Shown: piece after piece, positions 358 to 40,929 of the stretch | Layout of the letters: every line of letters starts with the position of its first letter | Numbering within the stretch: position 1 is the stretch's first letter | Source of the DNA: a virus | Taxonomy: Duplodnaviria; Caudoviricetes | Direction: 5' to 3' (one strand) | Length of the DNA stretch: 41,099 bases | Virus record (IMG/VR): IMGVR_UViG_3300024331_000005 | Coordinates: 1 to 41,099 of that record | Program-made: the position numbers and the translations under genes | Notes under the pieces: model-generated | What the model was told of the DNA's origin: nothing | Database searches by the model: none | What the model saw: the letters and a program-made list of their open reading frames with translations, nothing else

Positions 358-1851
358 CTATTGGTTCTTGCCGCGTGAGTCAATCCAGCCTAGAGTGGTA
401 ATGATAAATGCATCGCTTGCCCCGCTTGCATCCTGGCGCGTGCGGAATTGCGCGGATGTATTGGTTAATACGCTTTTTTGTATCGTCGTAGAAACCTGCG
501 CGGCGCTATTGGTCCGCAAATCGAATAGGGTTGAGGTCGGCGTGGTATCGGTTTGGGAGAGCGCCGTATACAGATGATTCTGAGCCGATGATGTAGCGTT
601 TTGCTCATTGAATACGCATCTGGCAAATACTGTGATTCCAGTCGGAACAGTCACCGTGCGAGTGACCGCCGAAGTACCCGGATTGCTGACGTTCACGTCA
701 TTTACAGGAACGTCCCAAGTAAACTCATCGCCATTTTGCGCGAATAGAATCCAGTGCGCCGAAGCATCCGTTTTGCCTGATCCGATGCGCCGGTAGATGG
801 TGTAATTCGCTGGCAATGCAGGAGCCGATGCCGACAGGCTGAAAATAACGTCCGTGACATTCGTATCGGGGCGATTGATTTCGTAGAAATGATACCAGGT
901 CGAATTGGCGATTGCGCCCGTATCCAGACCGCCCTGCGCGCTTCCGACTGCCCAGGATGAGGTTGTTTTGGCAATGGATGCCGCCAAGGTCATATAGGCG
1001 GCATTGGTGCTATCCGTGGCAGTTCCTGCGGCAATCGTCATCGTTCCAGAACTACCCGCCGTAGACATGGTAAGACCGGCGATGTAATTGCGCAAAACAA
1101 CGTTCGGCGCGCTGTTATTGATAACCGGCCTGCCGCTCGTATCGTAGCTGACAGTAATGCTCGTGCCCGCCTGAATAAAGCGCGGAATCGAGATATTGGT
1201 AGCCGACAGCAACCCATAAGAAACGGCAGACAGCGGATTTTGCAGCGTCAGTCCGCCATCGTTGATCGTCGTAACTGTGGTAAGCGTGGTGCCGTTATAG
1301 GCGGCAGTGTTTACCGTGGCGTATTTGGTGCCGATGCCGTCAACGATTTGCAGGCGCAGGCCAGCGGTAAACGTTGAAGTCTGATCGCCTGCCAGGGTAA
1401 AACTGGTGCCGCTAACGAATGTAGGTGATGGCCCGGCTACCCATTGCGACTGTGTAACCGTTGTATCATTGATACCCTTGATATTATCGATAGTCCAAAT
1501 CGGACTAGTCGGCGGGTCGGTATCGGTCGGGCTGGCGAGTACGGCCTTATAGGTCAGACCGGCTTGGAAGAAAATGCCGCTTGCCGGTTCGCCTAGAGAG
1601 TTTAAGACGATGGGGTTGGCATTGGCGACTAGACCGGTAGAATCGGTATATGTATTCTGTTTAGTGCTAGTCGATCCGCCAACGTACCAAAATAGTTGAT
1701 AGCCGGTTGCTGGTGCGCCGGTCAGGTCAACGTATTGGGGCTTGGGACCGCCTAGGGAGGATGGGTTTACGGCGGCAATGCCAATCCCCTGCACGAACAG
1801 CAGGGCAAAAAGCAATAAACCGGAGTAAAATTTGCGCATGGATTTATTCAT
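358..1851 (-). CDS. Tailspike/tail fibre with head-binding-like domain and N-terminal signal peptide (start 1851 or 1839)
   Basis: MRKFYSGLLLFALLFVQGIGIA leader, then PKPQYVDLTGAP..LFWYVGG..TYTDSTG..NANPIVLN..YKAVL..WTIDNI, typical of podophage tailspike virion-attachment domains. The rest is S/T-rich and beta-like. Follows the ejection genes. Confidence 0.8.
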   Translation of the reverse strand: MNKSMRKFYSGLLLFALLFVQGIGIAAVNPSSLGGPKPQYVDLTGAPATGYQLFWYVGGSTSTKQNTYTDSTGLVANANPIVLNSLGEPASGIFFQAGLTYKAVLASPTDTDPPTSPIWTIDNIKGINDTTVTQSQWVAGPSPTFVSGTSFTLAGDQTSTFTAGLRLQIVDGIGTKYATVNTAAYNGTTLTTVTTINDGGLTLQNPLSAVSYGLLSATNISIPRFIQAGTSITVSYDTSGRPVINNSAPNVVLRNYIAGLTMSTAGSSGTMTIAAGTATDSTNAAYMTLAASIAKTTSSWAVGSAQGGLDTGAIANSTWYHFYEINRPDTNVTDVIFSLSASAPALPANYTIYRRIGSGKTDASAHWILFAQNGDEFTWDVPVNDVNVSNPGTSAVTRTVTVPTGITVFARCVFNEQNATSSAQNHLYTALSQTDTTPTSTLFDLRTNSAAQVSTTIQKSVLTNTSAQFRTRQDASGASDAFIITTLGWIDSRGKNQ

Positions 1852-6451: not shown

Positions 6452-6739
6452 CTATTGCTCCTTCTCTACTTCGTCAGCATTGAACACACAGAACAGTCGC
6501 GTGTTGTCTTCAAGCGCGATAAACCAATGATCTACGCCGCTATCAATCAGTTTCGCCTCACCTGCCTTGATGGTTCCCTTGAGTTCGCCATCTACAAAAT
6601 ATTCAGCCGATCCGCTACCGCACAGAGTAGGGTGTGAAACGTCATGGCGATGACGCGGCACGCCTTCGCCTTTCATCAGCACCGGAGAGCCGCGAAAATA
6701 AAACTTGCCGCAGAATTCGACGGTTTCTACGTTAGCCAT
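6452..6739 (-). CDS. Cupin-domain protein
   Basis: G..VPRHRHD.SH..LC.SGS and I.SG.DH.F.ALED metal-binding cupin motifs. Confidence 0.75.
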   Translation of the reverse strand: MANVETVEFCGKFYFRGSPVLMKGEGVPRHRHDVSHPTLCGSGSAEYFVDGELKGTIKAGEAKLIDSGVDHWFIALEDNTRLFCVFNADEVEKEQ

Positions 6740-7278
6740 GTCATCTCCGTTTTGATGCAAACAATCATCGCTATCCTGTTGCGTTTGCTATCGTTGTTTA
6801 CCCAATGCGGAATGTCGTTGCGGAATTCGTAGACTTCGCCCAAGTGCGGATGAATCGCCGCACCCTCCCATTCAAACGACGCGCCTGCGTCGTTTTGCAC
6901 CGGGACATAAAACTTGGAGTAATAGCCAGCATGCCATCCGCCATCCACATGCGGCTCGATGCGCCCGCCCGCAGGCACTTTCGTAATCAGCACGCCGCCC
7001 AATCGCTCGCCGTCAACCAGCGCCATCAGCCCAAACAGAATCGGCTTGAGTTCCGGCAGTTCGCGATAGGCCGGATACCACACGGAATCGTGTTCATCAT
7101 TGAAATTCGGCCCTAGGTTTTTGTAATCGTTATAGCGCACCCAAATATCCGACATGGCTGCATGTGCATACGTTTCCTGCCGCATCTTGCGCTCGCCGAA
7201 TAAATGCGTCTTTGCATTCAATGCAATTTGCAGATGCGAAACATCCAAGTCATCATAGATGCGGGCGAATGGCTTCAT
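6727..7278 (-). CDS. 2OG-Fe(II) oxygenase, aspartyl/asparaginyl beta-hydroxylase-like
   Basis: GGRIEPHVD (HxD) ... GEVYEFRNDIPHWVNN.S..NRIAMIV (distal His and Arg). Start MKPF at 7278 overlaps the upstream stop. Confidence 0.85.
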   Translation of the reverse strand: MKPFARIYDDLDVSHLQIALNAKTHLFGERKMRQETYAHAAMSDIWVRYNDYKNLGPNFNDEHDSVWYPAYRELPELKPILFGLMALVDGERLGGVLITKVPAGGRIEPHVDGGWHAGYYSKFYVPVQNDAGASFEWEGAAIHPHLGEVYEFRNDIPHWVNNDSKRNRIAMIVCIKTEMTWLT

Positions 7279-7535
7279 GCGACAGTCCCATCCGCAAGAA
7301 TCCACGTTACGCCATCTTTGGCTATCCAAATCGGTTTACCATGCGCGCCAAGCGACGTATCAAAATAAGTGCGCCCGATGAACAGGAATGTGGTGGGCCG
7401 CTGCGCCGTGGTGCCGCTAGAGGTCAAGCCAGAAAGCAGATTAAACACGGCAGAGAAAAACGATGCCCAGCCGGGATTCTGCATTTCCGCGCCTTGATCG
7501 ACTGCGCCGGATGGGGGCTTGTTTATCAGTGCCAT
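7275..7535 (-). CDS. Small tail-region protein
   Basis: Directly after the gp10-like gene; SGTTAQRPT..GRTYFDT.LG..KPIW....W..ADG motif seen in small tail proteins. Confidence 0.65.
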   Translation of the reverse strand: MALINKPPSGAVDQGAEMQNPGWASFFSAVFNLLSGLTSSGTTAQRPTTFLFIGRTYFDTSLGAHGKPIWIAKDGVTWILADGTVA

Positions 7536-9193: not shown

Positions 9194-9595
9194 TTAGCGC
9201 GGCGGATTTGGGTTAAGGCGAACTTTGAGTGGATCACCAGAAACAGAGATGGCGGCTATGTCTTGCTCGCGACAGAGAAGATATTGCTTTCCATCCAAAG
9301 TAATCGGCTCGCCGCCTGAGTTATAACGACCAAAAATCACCCAATCGCCTACTTTGAGCGATGTAGGTACAAGATGCCCATGCTGCGTATGTCCGGCTGC
9401 ATCCAAAAATGTGCTATAGATGCGTCCCGGCCCAACAGCTACAACGCGTCCGCTCGGAAATTTTGCCTCATCTCCTGGCAGAAAAATTCCTCCCTTGGAG
9501 ACTTCTTCTTTCAGTTGCTCGACAATCACAATATCGCTGATTGCGCGCAGCGGGAATTCTTCGGCCTGAGTAAGCGGGACAACATTGCTTTGCAT
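9194..9595 (-). CDS. groES: Co-chaperonin GroES (Cpn10)
   Basis: LRAISDIVIV..SKGGIFLP..GRVVAVGPG..LKVGDWVIF..Y..G..I.LDGKQYLL.RE.DI. Confidence 0.92.
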   Translation of the reverse strand: MQSNVVPLTQAEEFPLRAISDIVIVEQLKEEVSKGGIFLPGDEAKFPSGRVVAVGPGRIYSTFLDAAGHTQHGHLVPTSLKVGDWVIFGRYNSGGEPITLDGKQYLLCREQDIAAISVSGDPLKVRLNPNPPR

Positions 9596-10202: not shown

Positions 10203-10901
10203 TTAGAAGCCTTTGTATAAAAAACTGTTCGAAATGTTACTTGATGTATCGAAGGGACAATCCATCTCCATCACCATCACATTCGTATCCGTCAGCCTGT
10301 TCTGTGCCTCAGTAGCCAAGCGCCGTACATCCGCAGGCACAGGCGCATTCCCCTTGAATGACGGCCAAATATCAACGGACAAGGCATCGACCATGAATTT
10401 CTCGTAACCGGCAGGCAGTTGCAAATTGCTGGTCAACGTCATTGCCGCAGGCGTGATGCGATTGCGTGAAACGATGGTGCATAGGAATGCAGCGTAAGGC
10501 GTCGGATAAAACGAAAATATCCCGTCAGGAAAATCGGGATTGTAAAAACACTGATTCGGAATCCCTTGCGTTGCCTTGAATGGGATTGCATCAAACTTTT
10601 GCTGATCGATTAGATCAACGTCATAGTCGATGCCGGATAGCGTGAGGAAAATCGAATCCAGGCTAACCGGGCGCCCCGCAACAGTAAGCAGCGTGGTTAG
10701 ATACGTATTCACCGCTGCCGTCATGGTGAAACTGTCGTTTGTCGTGTTGTAAACGATGAAATTATCGTTTGCAAACGAGTCCATCATCCGTTGGAATCGA
10801 CGCAATGCCAATTGCATGCTGGCGTTGTCGATTACCTCATCCTGGCCCTTGATGGTAGAGCCGTAGAATGCGTCTTGGATGATGGTCGATACAGCAGTCA
10901 T
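10203..10901 (-). CDS. Head-tail connector, P22 gp4-like
   Basis: AL.R...MMDSF, GIP...FYNP.FP.G...FYP.P and LPAGY motifs; lies between coat and gp10-like genes. Confidence 0.7.
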   Translation of the reverse strand: MTAVSTIIQDAFYGSTIKGQDEVIDNASMQLALRRFQRMMDSFANDNFIVYNTTNDSFTMTAAVNTYLTTLLTVAGRPVSLDSIFLTLSGIDYDVDLIDQQKFDAIPFKATQGIPNQCFYNPDFPDGIFSFYPTPYAAFLCTIVSRNRITPAAMTLTSNLQLPAGYEKFMVDALSVDIWPSFKGNAPVPADVRRLATEAQNRLTDTNVMVMEMDCPFDTSSNISNSFLYKGF

Positions 10902-11505: not shown

Positions 11506-12759
11506 TTAAGCGCCCACCTGTTGCACAGCCTGCTCTGGGTAGGGGGTGGCCCACCCATACAAAGCGTCAACCCGATTACCCACGGTATCCGAGGAAATTG
11601 CAGCTTGGCGGAAGGTCCGCAGGCTGAAACCCTCGAAACTTTGCACGCTGCCCCAGCCGCCAAACATCGCCAGGTCTTGCATGCGGACAACGGCAAGCTC
11701 AAACGCGTCCGGATGCCATGCGAGGTTACGCACGTAGCCGGTTGCGGCAGTACCGTTGATGGTCAGAACCTGATTGTCAGCGGCGGCATTGCTGGCATTC
11801 TGGAACGGGCCGCCGTAGATCAGCGCGGGCGAGTGGCTGATAGTCATGTTGCCAGACGCATCAGTCGAACCGGCTGCGACTACGGTAAATTGCAGCAGGT
11901 CAAACGTCGCTGCGCCAGTTGCCACGCGGGTAACAGGGTTCACGCCATACACGCCAGCGATGGTGAAGTTATCGCCAACGTTCAGACGTTGCGCAGCCGC
12001 ACCGGTCCAAGTGTCAGTCACCAGAGTACCGATGTTGGCCCAGCCGGTAGCCAGCCCTTGCGAAGCGCCGTTAGTCTGCGGAGCGCCACCCAAAGCGCCG
12101 ACAGTCTGACGCGCCACGTTTTGCGACATGGCGATTTTCAGGCCGATGGTGTTGGTTGCGTCCACAAACATGCCTTCTTCGTACTGCTTGGCGATCAGGT
12201 TTTGCGCCTGAAAGAAGCCAGTCAGCGCGGCGACTTGCGCGGCATTGGAAGTCGGGTCCATGACGAAATAACGCTCGCCGTCGCGGGGGACGGAGAAGTT
12301 ATCCATCTTGCGGCCAATGTCGAACAGGAAAGACTGCGTGTTCGGCGCGGTGCCAGCCGTACCAGTCAGCGGGCCAACCGTGTTTTTGGCGTTGATGTAA
12401 CCGTCCTGGTCGATCTGCGTCCCGAGTTGAATCATCGCGGGTTTGATGACGCGATTGCTGAAATCCTGCTCCTTCAAGGTCATGTCCGCAGAAGTAAACG
12501 CCGTATCGACGTGCTTTTGCGAGTTGATGACCAAAGGAATGCTAGTTTCCACGTAGTCCTGCGCGTTGAACGCTTGACCGTTGGAAATCAAGGCGCGCCA
12601 CGGGCGGCGAATGTTGATCGTGTCACCGATCTTCATGTCATCCTTGGCGAAATCCTTTTCATGGTCGCGCGAGACGCGTTTACCGAAAACGATGTTGTTA
12701 TTCAGGGAGCGCAGGCACTCCTTGGTATACATCACCGGGTTCTGGAAAATATTGCTCAT
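11506..12759 (-). CDS. Major capsid protein, P22 gp5-like
   Basis: KIGDTINIRRP, QKHVD..F.S.D.TL, GD.FTIAGV, NLAWHPDAF.L and R.D.LYG motifs. Confidence 0.95.
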   Translation of the reverse strand: MSNIFQNPVMYTKECLRSLNNNIVFGKRVSRDHEKDFAKDDMKIGDTINIRRPWRALISNGQAFNAQDYVETSIPLVINSQKHVDTAFTSADMTLKEQDFSNRVIKPAMIQLGTQIDQDGYINAKNTVGPLTGTAGTAPNTQSFLFDIGRKMDNFSVPRDGERYFVMDPTSNAAQVAALTGFFQAQNLIAKQYEEGMFVDATNTIGLKIAMSQNVARQTVGALGGAPQTNGASQGLATGWANIGTLVTDTWTGAAAQRLNVGDNFTIAGVYGVNPVTRVATGAATFDLLQFTVVAAGSTDASGNMTISHSPALIYGGPFQNASNAAADNQVLTINGTAATGYVRNLAWHPDAFELAVVRMQDLAMFGGWGSVQSFEGFSLRTFRQAAISSDTVGNRVDALYGWATPYPEQAVQQVGA

Positions 12760-13712: not shown

Positions 13713-14432
13713 TTATTGCAGGAACGCTTGCATGCTGACAAGCTGAATCGTTTCAGTGCCCGTCGCCTTGGTGCAGGTAACGACGATTTCCGTTTCCAGT
13801 TGCTGATAGGCGCGGGTAAGCGACGTGTAAGCAGTGGTGGAAGTGCCGTAGTAGCCAGTCGTTCCAGCGCCCAGCCCTTCCAGCGTTGCGCCGTCGCCTT
13901 GACCTTCGAATGCCGCGTCGAAGTTGTAATTGAGAACGTTCGCCAGCGATGGCGAGGCGAAGAACAGGTTACCGGCCAGACCATTCATACGGCAGTTCAT
14001 CGTCTTGGCGTTGGCGCTGTTCGTCATGTTCGCCGATGCCTTGACGAGACACTTGAAGTTCGCAGGCAGCGAGTTCGGCGCGAGGCGGAACGAAAACAGC
14101 ACTTGCTCAGACGTGGAGTTCGCTGAATCGATGGTCACGCCGTTGTTGATGAGTTGTCCCTGCATGCCGGGGATCACCATGTCAGACAGCACGCCAACCG
14201 CGTTTTGCGTGGTCGCGGTGATCTGGTAATACTGGTTCACGTCCGGGCGATACGATTGCGCCGTGGTGGACGAGCTAATCACCGCCGAGAACGGACCTGC
14301 TGGGTTGCTGGCTACCAGAAGCGAAACGCTGCCCCCCTGCAATTGCGGGGCCACACAGATGCTTTGGTTTGCCAGGATGGTCTGCACAGCAGAAGTGGTG
14401 CCGGACGAAACGCGGGTAATGATGGTGGACAT
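13713..14432 (-). CDS. Putative head decoration/minor virion protein
   Basis: S/T/A/G-rich beta-type protein between portal and scaffold, AAAGGA RBS; function inferred from position only. Confidence 0.55.
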   Translation of the reverse strand: MSTIITRVSSGTTSAVQTILANQSICVAPQLQGGSVSLLVASNPAGPFSAVISSSTTAQSYRPDVNQYYQITATTQNAVGVLSDMVIPGMQGQLINNGVTIDSANSTSEQVLFSFRLAPNSLPANFKCLVKASANMTNSANAKTMNCRMNGLAGNLFFASPSLANVLNYNFDAAFEGQGDGATLEGLGAGTTGYYGTSTTAYTSLTRAYQQLETEIVVTCTKATGTETIQLVSMQAFLQ

Positions 14433-19242: not shown

Positions 19243-19430
19243 GCATGTATTTCGGTAATCGTTTTAATGATATTGGCATTAATCCACACGGATCGCCCAT
19301 AAGCCGTGATTTTTATCATCGGCATATCGACTGCATCAATGTTGACCCATGCGGGACAACCTTCAATCGGCCATTCGGATGATGGAAGATTGAAAATTAT
19401 TACCGCCTGTTTGCCAACCAATTCCTTCAC
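19239..19430 (-). CDS. Hypothetical protein
   Basis: GTGA coupling and GGAGG RBS. Confidence 0.6.
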   Translation of the reverse strand: MKELVGKQAVIIFNLPSSEWPIEGCPAWVNIDAVDMPMIKITAYGRSVWINANIIKTITEIHA

Positions 19431-19915
19431 GCCACCTCCGCCGTTACCCTAACGTCATACGCCATCGGCATACAATACGCTACCCGCCTAGCCCAATCAT
19501 ACGCCCCATCAAGAAGCAGCAAGCAGTGCGCGTATCCGGGCAAATCACTCGCATGGGGCCGCAGCTTCGATCCATTGCACGTAGGACAGGCGGCATCCTC
19601 AAGCGTCGGCGTGTCGGGCAGTTTCAAGTGGCCCAATCCGCTGCAATCGGGGCATACGCTCGACAACCACCAGAGAAGCGCCAGTGCGGATGTATTCTGC
19701 TCCAATCGGAATCGTTTGCCTGCGCGTTTATCCAGAATGCCAGTTAAAGCTCCTACGCACGGCCATAGCGCCTGTTGGTCGCCTGCGTCGTAGCGTGCGA
19801 GGGTTGTGATAGCCAAACCGGGCAGCGGGTCTTTGTGACTGGCGTAGGCAGAGGCGATCAGTAACGTGCGGTCAATGTGCGTTGCGCCGACTGAAGATAG
19901 TAAACGCTCAAGCAT
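19427..19915 (-). CDS. Late antiterminator Q-like zinc-finger protein
   Basis: CPDCSGLG...CPTCNG; last substantial gene before the late promoter. Confidence 0.65.
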   Translation of the reverse strand: MLERLLSSVGATHIDRTLLIASAYASHKDPLPGLAITTLARYDAGDQQALWPCVGALTGILDKRAGKRFRLEQNTSALALLWWLSSVCPDCSGLGHLKLPDTPTLEDAACPTCNGSKLRPHASDLPGYAHCLLLLDGAYDWARRVAYCMPMAYDVRVTAEVA

Positions 19916-20069
19916 GGCGCGAAGGCTTGATATAGTCGGTTGCGAATCTCCCGAGACATATTTTGATAATATCTCCAGAGTTATTCGACGCAAGAATCTT
20001 ACGATACCTCTGCATAGCCAAAAAGTATTTTATGTTGCTTACCTTACGCGGATTCGGTCGCATCAGCAT
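19908..20069 (-). CDS. Small basic hypothetical protein
   Basis: Hand-read (ML)MRPNPRKVSNIKYF...PSRHA*; fills the gap and overlaps both neighbours. Confidence 0.4.
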   Translation of the reverse strand: MLMRPNPRKVSNIKYFLAMQRYRKILASNNSGDIIKICLGRFATDYIKPSRHA

Positions 20070-20159: not shown

Positions 20160-21599
20160 TTAGTGAGCGCATTCAGTCTCATAAATCCCCCAAACCACAT
20201 CCGCAATCGCGTCCTGTCTTTCCCCGAAAAACTCCGCCTGCATCTGTTTCGCGCTCGGCATTTCCGGCATCCAGTGCGGGTGCTTGAGCAGCGTAACCAC
20301 GTTTTCGACGTATTCGCTCACCGTCTGCGCGATCAGGAATTCTTCTGGCATGCCGAAGCGCCGGATACGCATGGCAGCGATTCTCCCGGCTGTTTCATTC
20401 CCCTCAAGCGTAACAGTCGGCACGCCGCATAAAAAGCAATCTTGCACGCTGTTCGTGCCGCCGAATGGGAACGTATCGAGCGCGAGCGTACAGGTTGCCA
20501 AGCGGTCAAGGTAGGTCTGGTAATCCGTCTGCGGATGTACCGTAGCGCGCGGAAACCACTTCCGAATCTCGTAATCGACCATCGCATGCTGCAATCCCTG
20601 CTGGTTCGGGAAGAATACGAATTCCACATCGGGCCAGCGTTCGGCGATCTGTTGTAGGGCACGCATGAACGGCGGAATCAGCTTGGCAGCGATGGCTGGA
20701 ATTGCCACGCGGTTTTTCACTGGCTGATGCGCTGGCGGTATGCCGTCATTGCGCCTAATCGACGTAACGCTCCCATCCGGCAGCGCGACAACCTTTTCGG
20801 AATACATTGCGCGGTCGCCAATGAGCGATTCCTCAGTCAGCAGGTAATCAATGCATGGCGACTGCGAGGAGGCCGGATGACCGGGACACATGATCTGGAT
20901 CGGTGCGAGTCGCAGCGTAGACAGCGTAATCGTCCACGATGCCATACCGATGCTCGGGTAAAAAATGATATCCGGCGACTCTGCCAAGATCATCGCGGAT
21001 ATGTCGGCGAACTCCAATTCATCCTGCGGGATGTGCAGGATGCGCTCGAATACCTCAATCGCTAGATTATCGCTCGCGTCGCCGCCGTACATGCCGACCA
21101 GTTCAAAGCGTGTGCGTAACTGCTTAAGCATGGGCGCATAGCAGCGAAACATGCTGTGATTCGTAGAGAACCATTCGAGCGGGACAAGGATTTTCGGGCG
21201 CGCTTTCGGTTCAGCCTTGCGCTCGCACTCCGGCGTGTCCATGCTGGCGATTGCCATATCCCGAAACCACTTGTTCACCGTGCGCTTGATGGCGTGCTTG
21301 TCGGGCGCGTCGGTGTAGGTGCAGTACATGTAGATTTCGCCCGCGTTGCTCACGGCTTCGTGCGGAATGCCGTATTGCGCGAGTTCGGCATGCAGGGCCA
21401 TGAGTCGCAGGCGCTGCTCATACGCCTTGTCGCTGATGACTATGGGATCGCCTAACGCCTTGAGGATAGCGGCGAGTATGACGGCGGGATGCGGGCCGAT
21501 TGGGGCTACTAGCTTATCGTCAGGTGCGGTGCCGTCTGCGCTCATATTCGCCTGTGAAGCAGCGGCCCATGCTACTAGGCCGTAGCATGGAAGGGTCAT
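20160..21599 (-). CDS. HMW1C/NGT-like protein N-glycosyltransferase (CAZy GT41)
   Basis: YMYCTY..KH.IKR..N; LEWF...HSMFR; FYPSIGM..L...RLAPIQ...GHP.S..S..IDY; AAKLIP.F; Y..YL..L..C...L..FPFGGTN...D. These motifs are collinear with HMW1C/ApNGT. Confidence 0.9.
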   Translation of the reverse strand: MTLPCYGLVAWAAASQANMSADGTAPDDKLVAPIGPHPAVILAAILKALGDPIVISDKAYEQRLRLMALHAELAQYGIPHEAVSNAGEIYMYCTYTDAPDKHAIKRTVNKWFRDMAIASMDTPECERKAEPKARPKILVPLEWFSTNHSMFRCYAPMLKQLRTRFELVGMYGGDASDNLAIEVFERILHIPQDELEFADISAMILAESPDIIFYPSIGMASWTITLSTLRLAPIQIMCPGHPASSQSPCIDYLLTEESLIGDRAMYSEKVVALPDGSVTSIRRNDGIPPAHQPVKNRVAIPAIAAKLIPPFMRALQQIAERWPDVEFVFFPNQQGLQHAMVDYEIRKWFPRATVHPQTDYQTYLDRLATCTLALDTFPFGGTNSVQDCFLCGVPTVTLEGNETAGRIAAMRIRRFGMPEEFLIAQTVSEYVENVVTLLKHPHWMPEMPSAKQMQAEFFGERQDAIADVVWGIYETECAH

Positions 21600-31933: not shown

Positions 31934-32541
31934 TTAGGCTCCACGAGGCGGTAGGCGATGATGTTTCGTGCGCGCGGGCCGCCACGTTCCCAGCGCCAAT
32001 CTAGCCGCGCCTCTTTCGCCTCGGTTTCTTCAAAGTTAGAGCCGTCATCCCGGACGATGCGAAGTTGAACGATGGTTCCTTCCTCAACCGGACATTCGCC
32101 ACCGTCATGCTTCACCCACCCGCCCTCCGACTGCTCGGCGTGCTGGGGAGTGTGCTCGGCGAGTTCGGCTTCGGTCGGCATGCGCCAGCAAGGGAACATT
32201 GCATGCTTCCCGGCGTTTAGTTCACCACCTCCAATAAGAATGACCTTGATCCATGCTCCGGCGTATTCAACAAATTCCGCCAGCACATTGCAGTTATCCG
32301 CGAATCCGCAGATCACTTTCTGCCCTGGCACTAGCAGGCGCTGCTCTTGCGCCTGCGGTTCTGGTTGCGGAGTGGGTTCTATGGCATCCAGTGCCTTGAT
32401 GAGGTCTTCGGCGTTGTCGAATACCTCCCCGTTATGCGGCTCATCCAATGCCTCTTGGATCAACTCGCGCTCTGTTTTTTCTACGCGCACCAGGCGCATA
32501 GCGGGAAAAGGATCAACGTCTTGCAGAGTGGGGATTTTCAT
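31930..32541 (-). CDS. Hypothetical protein with C-terminal W..HDG..CPV...W.W...IIAYR domain
   Basis: Recognisable small phage domain; coupled to the cro-like gene. Confidence 0.7.
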   Translation of the reverse strand: MKIPTLQDVDPFPAMRLVRVEKTERELIQEALDEPHNGEVFDNAEDLIKALDAIEPTPQPEPQAQEQRLLVPGQKVICGFADNCNVLAEFVEYAGAWIKVILIGGGELNAGKHAMFPCWRMPTEAELAEHTPQHAEQSEGGWVKHDGGECPVEEGTIVQLRIVRDDGSNFEETEAKEARLDWRWERGGPRARNIIAYRLVEPK

Positions 32542-32792
32542 TTGGCTTTCTCCTCACGTTCATTACAGATTGCCCGTAGATAGGCCCAATCGACATCTGG
32601 CCGGAGTTGCTCGCATGTAATCGCCCGCTCCGTCGCTCTCTCGATTGCCGGGCAATGCTCCGCTGGAATATTCTGGCGATTTAGCCAGTTCCAGACATGC
32701 GATTGAGTTACGCCAATAGCCATTGCAAGGGCCGATTGCCCTCCGCAATGGGTAATGGCACGCTTAAGGGCTGTCATGGGGGATATAGTCAT
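32538..32792 (-). CDS. cro: Cro/YdaS-like HTH regulator
   Basis: AI...GGQ.ALA..IGV.Q..V.NW....IPAE.CP.IE.AT......LRPDVDW. Confidence 0.88.
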   Translation of the reverse strand: MTISPMTALKRAITHCGGQSALAMAIGVTQSHVWNWLNRQNIPAEHCPAIERATERAITCEQLRPDVDWAYLRAICNEREEKAK

Positions 32793-34502: not shown

Positions 34503-35174
34503 ATGACTGTCACGTATCACAAGGAGTTGATCCAAGGCTCTCAGGAATGGCTAGATGCACGCTGCGGCATGCTTACGGCGTCCGAGATGGGCTTAATCAT
34601 CACTCCAACACTCAAAGCCGCCAGTAACGAAAAAGAGCGCACGCATCTGTACGAATTGCTTGCCCAACGCGTGACTAAGTACGTCGAGCCGCGTTATATT
34701 GGCGACGAGATGCTTAGGGGAATCGACGATGAAATACTGGCGCGCGATCTGTACGCAAAAAACTACGCGCCAGTGCAGGAGGTCGGATTCATCACGAATG
34801 ACAAATGGGGATTCACGCTCGGCTATTCACCCGATGCGCTTGTCGGCGATGATGGGCTGATTGAGTGCAAATCCAGGCGGCAAAAGTTTCAGGTACAGAC
34901 TTTTTGCGAGGGAAGCGCGGCGGCAGCGTTCGTTATCCAGTTGCAAACCGGCTTGCTTGTAAGCGAGCGGGAATGGATCGACTTCATCAGTTATTCCGGT
35001 GGCCTGCCCATGTTCGTTACCCGCGTGCGTCCGATACCGGAATATCAGGAGGCAATCATCACGGCAGCTACAGCATTTGAGGAGCGGCTTGCAAAAAACA
35101 TGGAAAAGTATCTGGAAAATATCAAGGGTAGTATCCCGACTGAGCGCAGGATTGAACAGGAGATGTACACGTGA
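34503..35174 (+). CDS. YqaJ/lambda-exonuclease-family nuclease
   Basis: QGS.EW...R.G.LTAS, SPDALV..DGLIECK, Q.Q..L.VS.R.W.DF.SY. Confidence 0.92.
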   Translation: MTVTYHKELIQGSQEWLDARCGMLTASEMGLIITPTLKAASNEKERTHLYELLAQRVTKYVEPRYIGDEMLRGIDDEILARDLYAKNYAPVQEVGFITNDKWGFTLGYSPDALVGDDGLIECKSRRQKFQVQTFCEGSAAAAFVIQLQTGLLVSEREWIDFISYSGGLPMFVTRVRPIPEYQEAIITAATAFEERLAKNMEKYLENIKGSIPTERRIEQEMYT

Positions 35175-39429: not shown

Positions 39430-39578
39430 AAGTCCTAACCATGTGTGTAATCCCTAAAGGCTATTGCGACTCAATAGGGACTATGCCAACATCATCCCGC
39501 TGTCATTGCCAGCAGGGGCCTTTGTCCCGGTTCTTACCAACCGGGGGCGCGAGCAAAAGCTATGCTTGCGCGCCCTTT
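39430..39578 (-). ncRNA. Multi-hairpin leader upstream of the lysis genes
   Basis: At least four stems: GGGCGCG..CGCGCCC; CCCGGTT..AACCGGG; CCTGCTG..CAGCGGG; CTATTG..CAATAG. Confidence 0.4.
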
Positions 39579-39859
39579 TAATTCATCTGCGAAACAGGGC
39601 TAACAACTATCGCTTGCTGCGCCTGTCCATTCTCTACGCCAAACATGGACGACTGAATGGAAGCGATAATGCATTGCTTCACCTGAGCCGCCGTTACTGT
39701 GCCCTTCGTTGCTGCTACTGTCACGCCCAATCCTGGCCCGACAGCGAAGCACCAGTTTTGCAGCCGTGCATCTGTTGCCGCGTCCGTGTTGATTGTAGCC
39801 GTTCCTGCCGTTGCTGAAACCGTGAAAAATAACAGCACCAGTGCAATAACTTTCCGCAT
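39578..39859 (-). CDS. Small secreted protein (signal peptide, 2 Cys)
   Basis: MRKVIALVLLFFTVSATA-G; AAGGGG RBS. Confidence 0.8.
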   Translation of the reverse strand: MRKVIALVLLFFTVSATAGTATINTDAATDARLQNWCFAVGPGLGVTVAATKGTVTAAQVKQCIIASIQSSMFGVENGQAQQAIVVSPVSQMN

Positions 39860-39951: not shown

Positions 39952-40929
39952 CTATCTAACGCGTCGCAATCGTATGAATCCGTAAGTTGTGATATTGGCG
40001 CTCACCGTGAAGATAGGGGCTGCGACCATGAACACTGTGGACGTACCGGATAGGCTGATCCGTACAGTCGGCGTCAGGCGGCAATTTTCGCTAGTCGTTG
40101 TAGCGAGCGGGACCATCGCCGCAAATTGCTCAGTGCTGTATGTCCCGAGCGCGCCAAATGTATTCGTGGCCGTACTGATGCCCTGCTTGTAGACCGTAAA
40201 TGAGGTAGAGGCGGCGCTGATATAACAGGTAAGTCCCTGGACATCGTAATCGCCTGCCGTGACAGTCGCACCAGTGCTGACTACCGTAATCGGGGTGTTG
40301 CTGCTGGCGGTGACAACTGCGCCGGTAGAAGCAACGGAGAATTCTCGTTCCTCTCCCCATGATCCCGCCTGCGCGTTGTTGTTGGTAGTTGTCCCAACAA
40401 TACCGTTTATCTGCGCTGGTGTAAAAGTTGTCGCGCCAGACATTGAAACATTACCAAATAGCGTAATCGTGCTCGCAGACGAACGAATGGACTCGGCGCC
40501 CCCGGCAGTAAGGCTTACCTGATTTCCTGCTACAGAAAACAATCCCGTAGAAGCGCCGCCAATAGACAGGCTTGGAGCACCTACCGCACCGGACGGTAGC
40601 GTAAAAATATTATTTGCTATTGTCGCCCCCGCCGTACTCGCGCCTCCCGACGAAAAGCTAATCGTCGCCCCCGAGCTAATCGTCCCATTGCCATCCGTCG
40701 CCAAGTTCGTATTGCAGGTAAACGCGCCCGCCGAGGAGTAAATTAAGCCGCCAGCGGTGGAGCAGGTTGCGGTAGGGACTGATCCAGTACCAGAGCCGCC
40801 CGCCACCGCCCGCAGCGCCCCGTTCGCCTGATTCGGCGCAATGCCGATAACGGAGAGAGCGACTAGAAGGGCGGCGACGAATAGGCCGCTTAGATAGTTG
40901 CCGAGTTTGTCGGATTTGTGCGTGTTCAT
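39952..40929 (-). CDS. Tail fibre-like protein with N-terminal signal/TM segment
   Basis: LSGLFVAALLVALSVIGIAPNQANG leader; G/S/T-rich shaft; C-terminal GTTTNNNA.AG..GE...AGDYDV.G...YG.IR.RRVR domain seen in phage fibres. Confidence 0.75.
   Translation of the reverse strand: MNTHKSDKLGNYLSGLFVAALLVALSVIGIAPNQANGALRAVAGGSGTGSVPTATCSTAGGLIYSSAGAFTCNTNLATDGNGTISSGATISFSSGGASTAGATIANNIFTLPSGAVGAPSLSIGGASTGLFSVAGNQVSLTAGGAESIRSSASTITLFGNVSMSGATTFTPAQINGIVGTTTNNNAQAGSWGEEREFSVASTGAVVTASSNTPITVVSTGATVTAGDYDVQGLTCYISAASTSFTVYKQGISTATNTFGALGTYSTEQFAAMVPLATTTSENCRLTPTVRISLSGTSTVFMVAAPIFTVSANITTYGFIRLRRVR

Follow-up and report, generated by a model that had tools for sequence, protein, structure and literature searches.

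The closest described relatives of the enzyme reported here are the HMW1C-like N-glycosyltransferases (NGTs) of family GT41, among them AaNGT (PDB 8P0O and 8P0Q), ApNGT (PDB 3Q3E) and EtpC. In phages, the virion glycosylation traceable in print is that of actinobacteriophages, which is reportedly O-linked and carried out by enzyme families other than the HMW1C type. For AaNGT, the available part of PMC10507012 describes Arg177 as essential, the R177A variant being inactive. ApNGT cut at Asn125 yields a fragment, P55, in which the first 124 residues are gone; the available text of PMC3012730 gives its efficiency as 60% with UDP-Glc and 38% with UDP-Gal and describes it as insoluble when recombinantly expressed alone. 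EtpC is a proven N-glycosyltransferase that, according to the accessible text, modifies non-sequon asparagines as well (bioRxiv 10.1101/2024.05.08.593125). In the full-text literature that we searched, whose coverage leaves out most subscription journals, we found no account of a phage enzyme of the HMW1C type; GT41 appears in one preprint's list of viral auxiliary genes, with no further detail in its available text (10.64898/2026.01.21.700432).

We analysed a window of 41,099 nucleotides that is the complete record of an uncultured P22-like phage of 41 kb with a terminal repeat of 127 bases. The single run that holds this record is labelled soil metagenome, and from the phage type we infer a Gram-negative host. 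Genes for terminase, scaffold, adaptor, head closure and ejection proteins accompany those for a P22-type coat and portal, and the window also has a block of lysis genes and an early region that is lambdoid-like (Table 1). The repressor-like and YqaJ exonuclease genes belong to a lambdoid layout, despite which neither a tyrosine integrase nor a serine recombinase was found in the complete genome.

Table 1. Features of the window, with coordinates and strand
Feature	Coordinates	Strand	Remarks
HMW1C/NGT-type GT41 glycosyltransferase without HMW1C_N (GT)	20160..21599	-	likely true start 21545 (461 aa)
Zinc-finger protein, probable Q-like antiterminator	19427..19993	-	weak family evidence; adjoins GT in sister phage G001 too
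239-aa Ser/Thr/Asn-rich head-module protein	13713..14432	-	candidate acceptor
P22-type coat protein	11506..12759	-	candidate acceptor; 5 sequons vs 4-6 in relatives where GT was not found
Head-tail adaptor	10203..10901	-	candidate acceptor; 4 sequons shared with G001, 0-4 in relatives where GT was not found
Spike/fibre-like protein, signal-peptide-like N-terminus	358..1839	-	candidate acceptor; 10 sequons vs 7.3 expected (p 0.18)
Tail-region protein, signal-peptide-like start	39952..40929	-	
Tail-region protein, signal-peptide-like start	39578..39859	-	
Tail-region 130-aa ORF, signal-peptide-like start	origin-spanning	-	
Cupin	6452..6760	-	within structural module
Asp/Asn beta-hydroxylase-like 2OG oxygenase	6727..7329	-	Pfam E 1e-4; within structural module
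GroES co-chaperonin	9194..9595	-	between adaptor and head closure
Repressor-like protein	32538..32792	-	
YqaJ exonuclease	34503..35174	+	

The GT gene had been proposed to lie just upstream of a Q-like gene and ahead of the late genes. Its position is as proposed; the Q-like identity of the neighbour is weak, with a match to PHROG 6060 at E 0.001 and Antiterm in 11-19% of the members of its Atlas clusters. A Q-like neighbour would place GT at the end of an early/middle operon. Our scan for promoters and terminators gave results at chance level only. Elsewhere in the genome, the 2OG oxygenase and the cupin beside it form a second candidate virion-modifying system, which occurs in the relatives G016 and G017 and not in G001. 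A tie between GT and the hydroxylase-like gene was rejected, since G001 lacks that gene whereas G016 and G017, neither of which has GT, possess it. The GroES gene recurs in 8 of 12 coat-related loci.

The 479-aa reading frame carries the motif series HSMFR, PSIGM, RLAPIQ..GHP, AAKLIP and FPFGGTN...D, which aligns in order with AaNGT and ApNGT, as originally read. When HMW1C/NGT-type enzymes were compared with OGT/SPINDLY, both sequence and structure placed GT closer to the former: phmmer searches of the PDB returned AaNGT at 1e-48 and ApNGT at 2e-45, with 8e-8 for the best OGT/SPINDLY entry, and the AlphaFold model (pLDDT 92, low for residues 1-30) matched NGT structures with TMq 0.79-0.84 versus 0.56-0.68 for OGT/SPY. 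Structural identity to the HMW1C-like NGTs is 24-26%, and the NCBIfam model NF049992 scores 201.7 bits, below its cut-off of 1000. Pfam detected no TPR family at the N-terminus, where OGT and SPINDLY have such a domain. These comparisons confirm GT as an HMW1C/NGT-type GT41 protein and not an OGT/SPINDLY enzyme. An in-frame stop lies seven codons upstream of Met1; the true start is probably Met19, because three of four short relatives have or begin with an MS(A/E)(N)ADG-like stretch.

No match to GT was found by tblastn in 50,697 annotated phage records, PHROG holds no family for it, and none of the best 50 matches of a BFVD structure search was GT41-like. A metagenome search returned the window's own record and G001 and nothing else. 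A search at the protein level gave 309 matches among 7,997 candidates scored, and most of the best 120 are proteins of 600-680 aa with the HMW1C_N domain. Five short forms, GT included, stand apart with 455-479 aa, no HMW1C_N and 45-73% identity, and a profile search for further close short members found none. In a tree built from EtpC, the proteins of the loci and the 50 best matches, 145 sequences in total, the five group as a single clade (support 0.998) that lies within full-length proteins of viral contigs. A single-sequence fold of one full-length relative was unusable (pLDDT 38).

The shortened N-terminal helical domain noticed in the original prediction is real: GT and its four short relatives lack the first ~160 residues of an NGT, Pro38 of GT aligns with EtpC residue 170, and PF18071 (HMW1C_N) occurs in the full-length carriers G002 and G011 but nowhere in the window, nor in G001. 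Of the helical domain, the second half is retained, and PF18254 is weak in GT (22.8 bits; cut-off 26.2). We rejected a frameshift or split gene, given the upstream stop, the absence of an N-terminal domain from the upstream frames and the rest of the genome, and the equal shortness of four relatives. Between the window and G001, GT has a dN of 0.33 and a dS of 1.5, the latter near saturation, for a dN/dS of about 0.2; its GC3 (0.70) is like that of core genes (coat, 0.71). By these sequence measures the gene is maintained under purifying selection, and the enzyme is probably active.

We then mapped the residue roles described for AaNGT (available text of PMC10507012) onto GT by sequence alignment only, with HMMER and via EtpC. 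AaNGT H276, S277, R280, G369 and H370 are kept as H148, S149, R152, G240 and H241, and K440, Y500, T519, N520 and D524 as K306, Y363, T382, N383 and D387. The donor site carries four changes (T437 to Ala304, H494 to Gln357, S495 to Thr358 and G521 to Ser384), and Q468 falls in an alignment gap. By this alignment, the nucleotide-sugar and catalytic core is largely retained. The acceptor site is altered. Arg177 is replaced by Pro52 in all five short forms and is missing throughout the phage branch; an arginine within two columns of the site occurs in only 3 of 139 sequences (118 database matches plus 21 viral loci). His214 has become Gly, and Asp215, an Asp in 108 of 118 database matches, is Glu88 in 5/5 short forms. 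EtpC retains the counterparts of all three. The claim that GT reads N-X-S/T sequons is therefore not supported: of the acceptor residues, only Asp215 survives, as Glu88. GT appears NGT-like in fold and predicted chemistry and yet fails two defining NGT features, because the core is kept while the N-terminal domain and the Arg177/Asp215 dyad are altered.

Gene neighbourhoods were compared across 24 viral loci, some of them near-duplicates. Donor-building genes lie within 10 kb of the GT gene in 17 of the 24, from the families DegT aminotransferase, nucleotide-sugar dehydratase, hexapeptide acyltransferase, ACP, FabH-like, reductase, Rieske and methyltransferase; in six, the GT gene stands beside capsid or adaptor genes, inside the head operon. 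The arrangement of the window, a stand-alone GT gene upstream of a Q-like gene, occurs in one (G001). DegT and GT2 genes are missing from both the window and G001, which leaves the host as the source of the donor. It need not be a plain hexose: judging from gene content, most phage relatives carry acylated amino-sugar pathways and the window phage none. In loci L002-L015 and L021-L023, such cassettes adjoin full-length HMW1C-type genes, and the L009 cassette adjoins thymidine-hypermodification genes. A tyrosine integrase was found in one of nine complete carriers and a serine recombinase in none, which favours a role in the lytic cycle. Taken together, the neighbourhoods make a virion target plausible for the family.

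Seventy-seven chromosomal loci, for which 73 cluster representatives were scanned, include DegT in 36, flagellin in 7 and RTX-repeat proteins in others. The HMW1C-fold genes that adjoin flagellin genes (L035, L044, L057, L068, L080, L084 and L091) lack Asp215, and from sequence context they are possible flagellin glycosyltransferases. A betaproteobacterial MAG holds four HMW1C-type paralogues as two tandem pairs on one contig (L029 9380-13328 and L037 9144-13036), beside TPR-like proteins and sugar-pathway genes; among chromosomal sequences, their clade is the phage branch's nearest sister.

The original prediction suggested that sequon density might track the presence of the gene. As a control for the method, EtpA gave 96 sequons against 55.8 expected (z 6.8). 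For comparison we used phages without GT, namely 11 P22-like coat relatives (2 complete) and 12 spike relatives (4 complete). For the window, nine virion proteins together held 43 sequons against 33.8 expected (z 1.8), and pooled z was 0.7 for G001 and -1.5, -1.9, -1.3, -2.3 and +0.6 for relatives without GT, where G001 and G017 are each represented minus one protein and G018 and G020 are near-identical. No single virion protein of the window exceeded z 1.7, and we found no sequon-rich cognate substrate among them. Whole ORF sets, which include some wrong-frame ORFs, gave z 2.7 for the window and 0.5 for G001. Of the asparagines gained on the carrier branch, 10/50 lie in sequons, compared with 3/55, 5/39, 8/58 and 13/59 in control lineages and 6/36 in an Asp control. 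Sequon asparagines were conserved between the two carriers no differently from other asparagines (28/37 vs 107/144, p 1.0), and in the pooled signal-peptide proteins 13 sequons were found where 13.0 are expected. In other carriers, tail proteins reached z 2.9-3.4, but the reversed motif S/T-x-N also reached 2.8-2.9, and the portal of a GT-less phage 3.0. Ten flagellins neighbouring chromosomal GT genes showed no consistent excess (z -0.8 to 2.1). Whether judged protein by protein, in pools, from clade-specific gains or from conservation, sequon enrichment was not convincing; in this phage group the survey is negative, with a faint trend and no significant excess over GT-less relatives.

Individual proteins gave smaller hints. 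The 239-aa head-module protein has 7.5% and 8.8% Asn in the two carriers versus 4.8-6.1% in nine relatives where GT was not found; it was picked after the fact from seven proteins, as the sole case with both carriers above all nine. The Asn content of the window coat equals that of GT-less relatives, and its N154-F-S is D-F-S in 10/10 relatives. In the late operon, the final four genes of the tail region, the spike gene among them, start with signal-peptide-like sequences as called by a simple heuristic and inspection (no trained predictor was used). Their four G001 counterparts do so too, and among 15 other spike relatives, one cut at its contig end, such a start was seen in L266 only. Such starts would mean that virion-type proteins are exported before they are assembled.

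A further Asn signal appeared in siphophages that carry GT. The tested carriers fall in one capsid clade (support 1.0) of 17 capsids, nine from known carriers (G003, G004, G006, G008, G009, G010, G012, G013 and G014) and eight from fragments in which no GT was found. An insert at about residues 158-308, low in charge, contains 9.3% Asn in this clade (7.2-11.8, n = 17) versus 5.0% outside it (2.7-7.7, n = 58); the remainder of the capsid differs little (5.4% vs 4.7%). Columns that gained Asn divide about evenly into those that are partly sequons and those that are not; two sequons of the outgroup are lost. No GT was found in 41 records outside the clade, four of them at least 90% complete, when 50 of 80 loci were searched, longest contigs first. 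The enrichment fits Asn-linked capsid glycosylation under a relaxed rule. It is a single phylogenetic event in a phage group different from that of the window, and the siphophage insert is a better test system for such glycosylation than the window phage.

Our preferred reading, to which we assign a probability of only about 0.4, is that GT is a trimmed HMW1C-type glycosyltransferase, likely active, that would act in the cytoplasm and place single sugars on virion proteins of this same phage, probably at Asn without a strict N-X-S/T rule. It would be made from the early/middle operon just ahead of the late genes and would draw on a host nucleotide-sugar. Within this reading, we put the linkage at about 60% for Asn and about 35% for Ser/Thr. 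As acceptors, the 239-aa head protein, the insertion domain of the coat, the adaptor and the signal-peptide-bearing spike are the best candidates, and coating exposed surfaces of the head or spike with sugar might serve stability or alter how particles stick or are recognised. We favour a virion target because of the head-operon placements, the frequency of donor genes, the rarity of integrases among complete carriers and the near doubling of capsid Asn in one carrier clade. Of the virion N-glycosylation first proposed, a looser form is plausible: the neighbourhoods suggest a virion target, and the sequon-directed version is not supported for this phage, with Arg177 lost and no significant sequon excess. 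Counting against any virion target, GT occurs with several different structural modules, which would fit a shared host target too.

That host target is the main rival, though we consider it unlikely. GT would then glycosylate a flagellin, a pilin, another receptor or a defence protein, and so keep competing phages out or weaken defence. Surface-glycosylation loci are a frequent setting of the chromosomal relatives, as the flagellin and DegT counts indicate; the phage cassettes share enzyme families with the Pseudomonas flagellin viosamine island (available text of PMC3927599); and in the window GT lies among early genes. Six viral loci, however, hold GT inside the head operon, carriers are mostly non-integrating and would have little time for lasting receptor conversion, and capsid Asn is enriched in a carrier clade. 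A classical NGT that transfers glucose or galactose from UDP-hexose onto N-X-S/T of virion proteins has a low probability in our estimate. Its subfamily and fold speak for it, as do the dyad acid preserved as Glu88, Ser149 (the counterpart of Ser277) in 4/5 short forms where 16/16 cassette-linked forms have Ala, the coat N154-F-S, and a pooled sequon z that is positive in both carriers and negative in four of five GT-less relatives. These points are set against the absence of Arg177, with hardly any arginine nearby in the alignment, and clade-specific sequon gains that stay within the controls and near the Asp control.

It is more doubtful still that GT is a decaying or non-catalytic remnant in which the donor cassette and the N-terminal domain went together. 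The losses of domain, Arg177 and cassette do map to the same branch, and only five members were found, but all five frames are intact at 45-73% identity with invariant catalytic residues, and both dN/dS and GC3 argue against decay. We give the least weight to phage DNA or a small molecule as the acceptor. The early/middle position of GT would suit it, the L009 cassette follows thymidine-hypermodification genes and the L021 cassette follows thymidylate synthase and dCMP deaminase, and loss of the N-terminal domain might open a groove. No base-hydroxymethylation gene was found among the scanned window proteins, a set that leaves out some small ORFs; the characterised GT41 enzymes in the papers cited act on proteins; and other carriers place GT in the head operon.

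A virion target with relaxed Asn specificity, our preferred reading, would have wider consequences. An HMW1C-derived clade across podo- and siphophages would extend virion glycosylation to Gram-negative phages, and possibly to Asn linkage. In its most extended form, which we regard as speculative and improbable in all its parts together, Gram-negative phages would have their own cytoplasmic Asn-glycosylation of virion proteins by this clade, and the window would hold its minimal, naturally soluble version of ~460 residues with a rebuilt acceptor site, acting on Asn outside N-X-S/T, possibly on spikes that are exported via Sec and joined to heads at lysis. The trimmed GT also poses the question of whether an NGT can function without the N-terminal domain and without its essential Arg. 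Because NGTs are used in glycoengineering (PMC10507012, available text), a smaller one with a different acceptor rule would be useful. New here are the trimmed, cassette-free clade and its parallel to P55, along with its reshaped acceptor site and the comparison of Asn in capsids.

GT shares with AaNGT, ApNGT and EtpC the GT-B fold, the second half of the helical domain, the motif order and most UDP-binding and catalytic residues. It differs in being phage-encoded, in lacking the first ~160 residues, in its Pro for Arg177 and Gly for His214, and in having neither an adhesin or two-partner secretion locus nor a sequon-saturated substrate. Actinobacteriophages likewise encode glycosyltransferases, which modify capsids as well as tail tubes (Freeman et al. 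2023 as cited in the available text of PMC10877033); their hosts are Gram-positive, unlike the inferred host of the phage here. The full-length phage relatives resemble the Pseudomonas flagellin viosamine islands, with aminotransferase, dehydratase, hexapeptide acyltransferase, ACP, FabH-like and reductase genes by the transferase, whereas the window phage has none of these beside GT and no DegT at all; in Pseudomonas flagellins it is Ser residues that bear the glycans, and other transferases assemble them (PMC3927599, available text). The same cassettes parallel the viosamine pathway that Mimivirus uses for its fibrils (PMC9614988, available text). The nearest precedent for the trimmed form is ApNGT P55, in which the N-terminal domain is likewise gone and the catalytic part kept. 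P55 is a laboratory fragment that, from the available text, retains the sequon-reading Arg region; the phage form is natural, ~35-45 residues shorter and conserved in five sequences.
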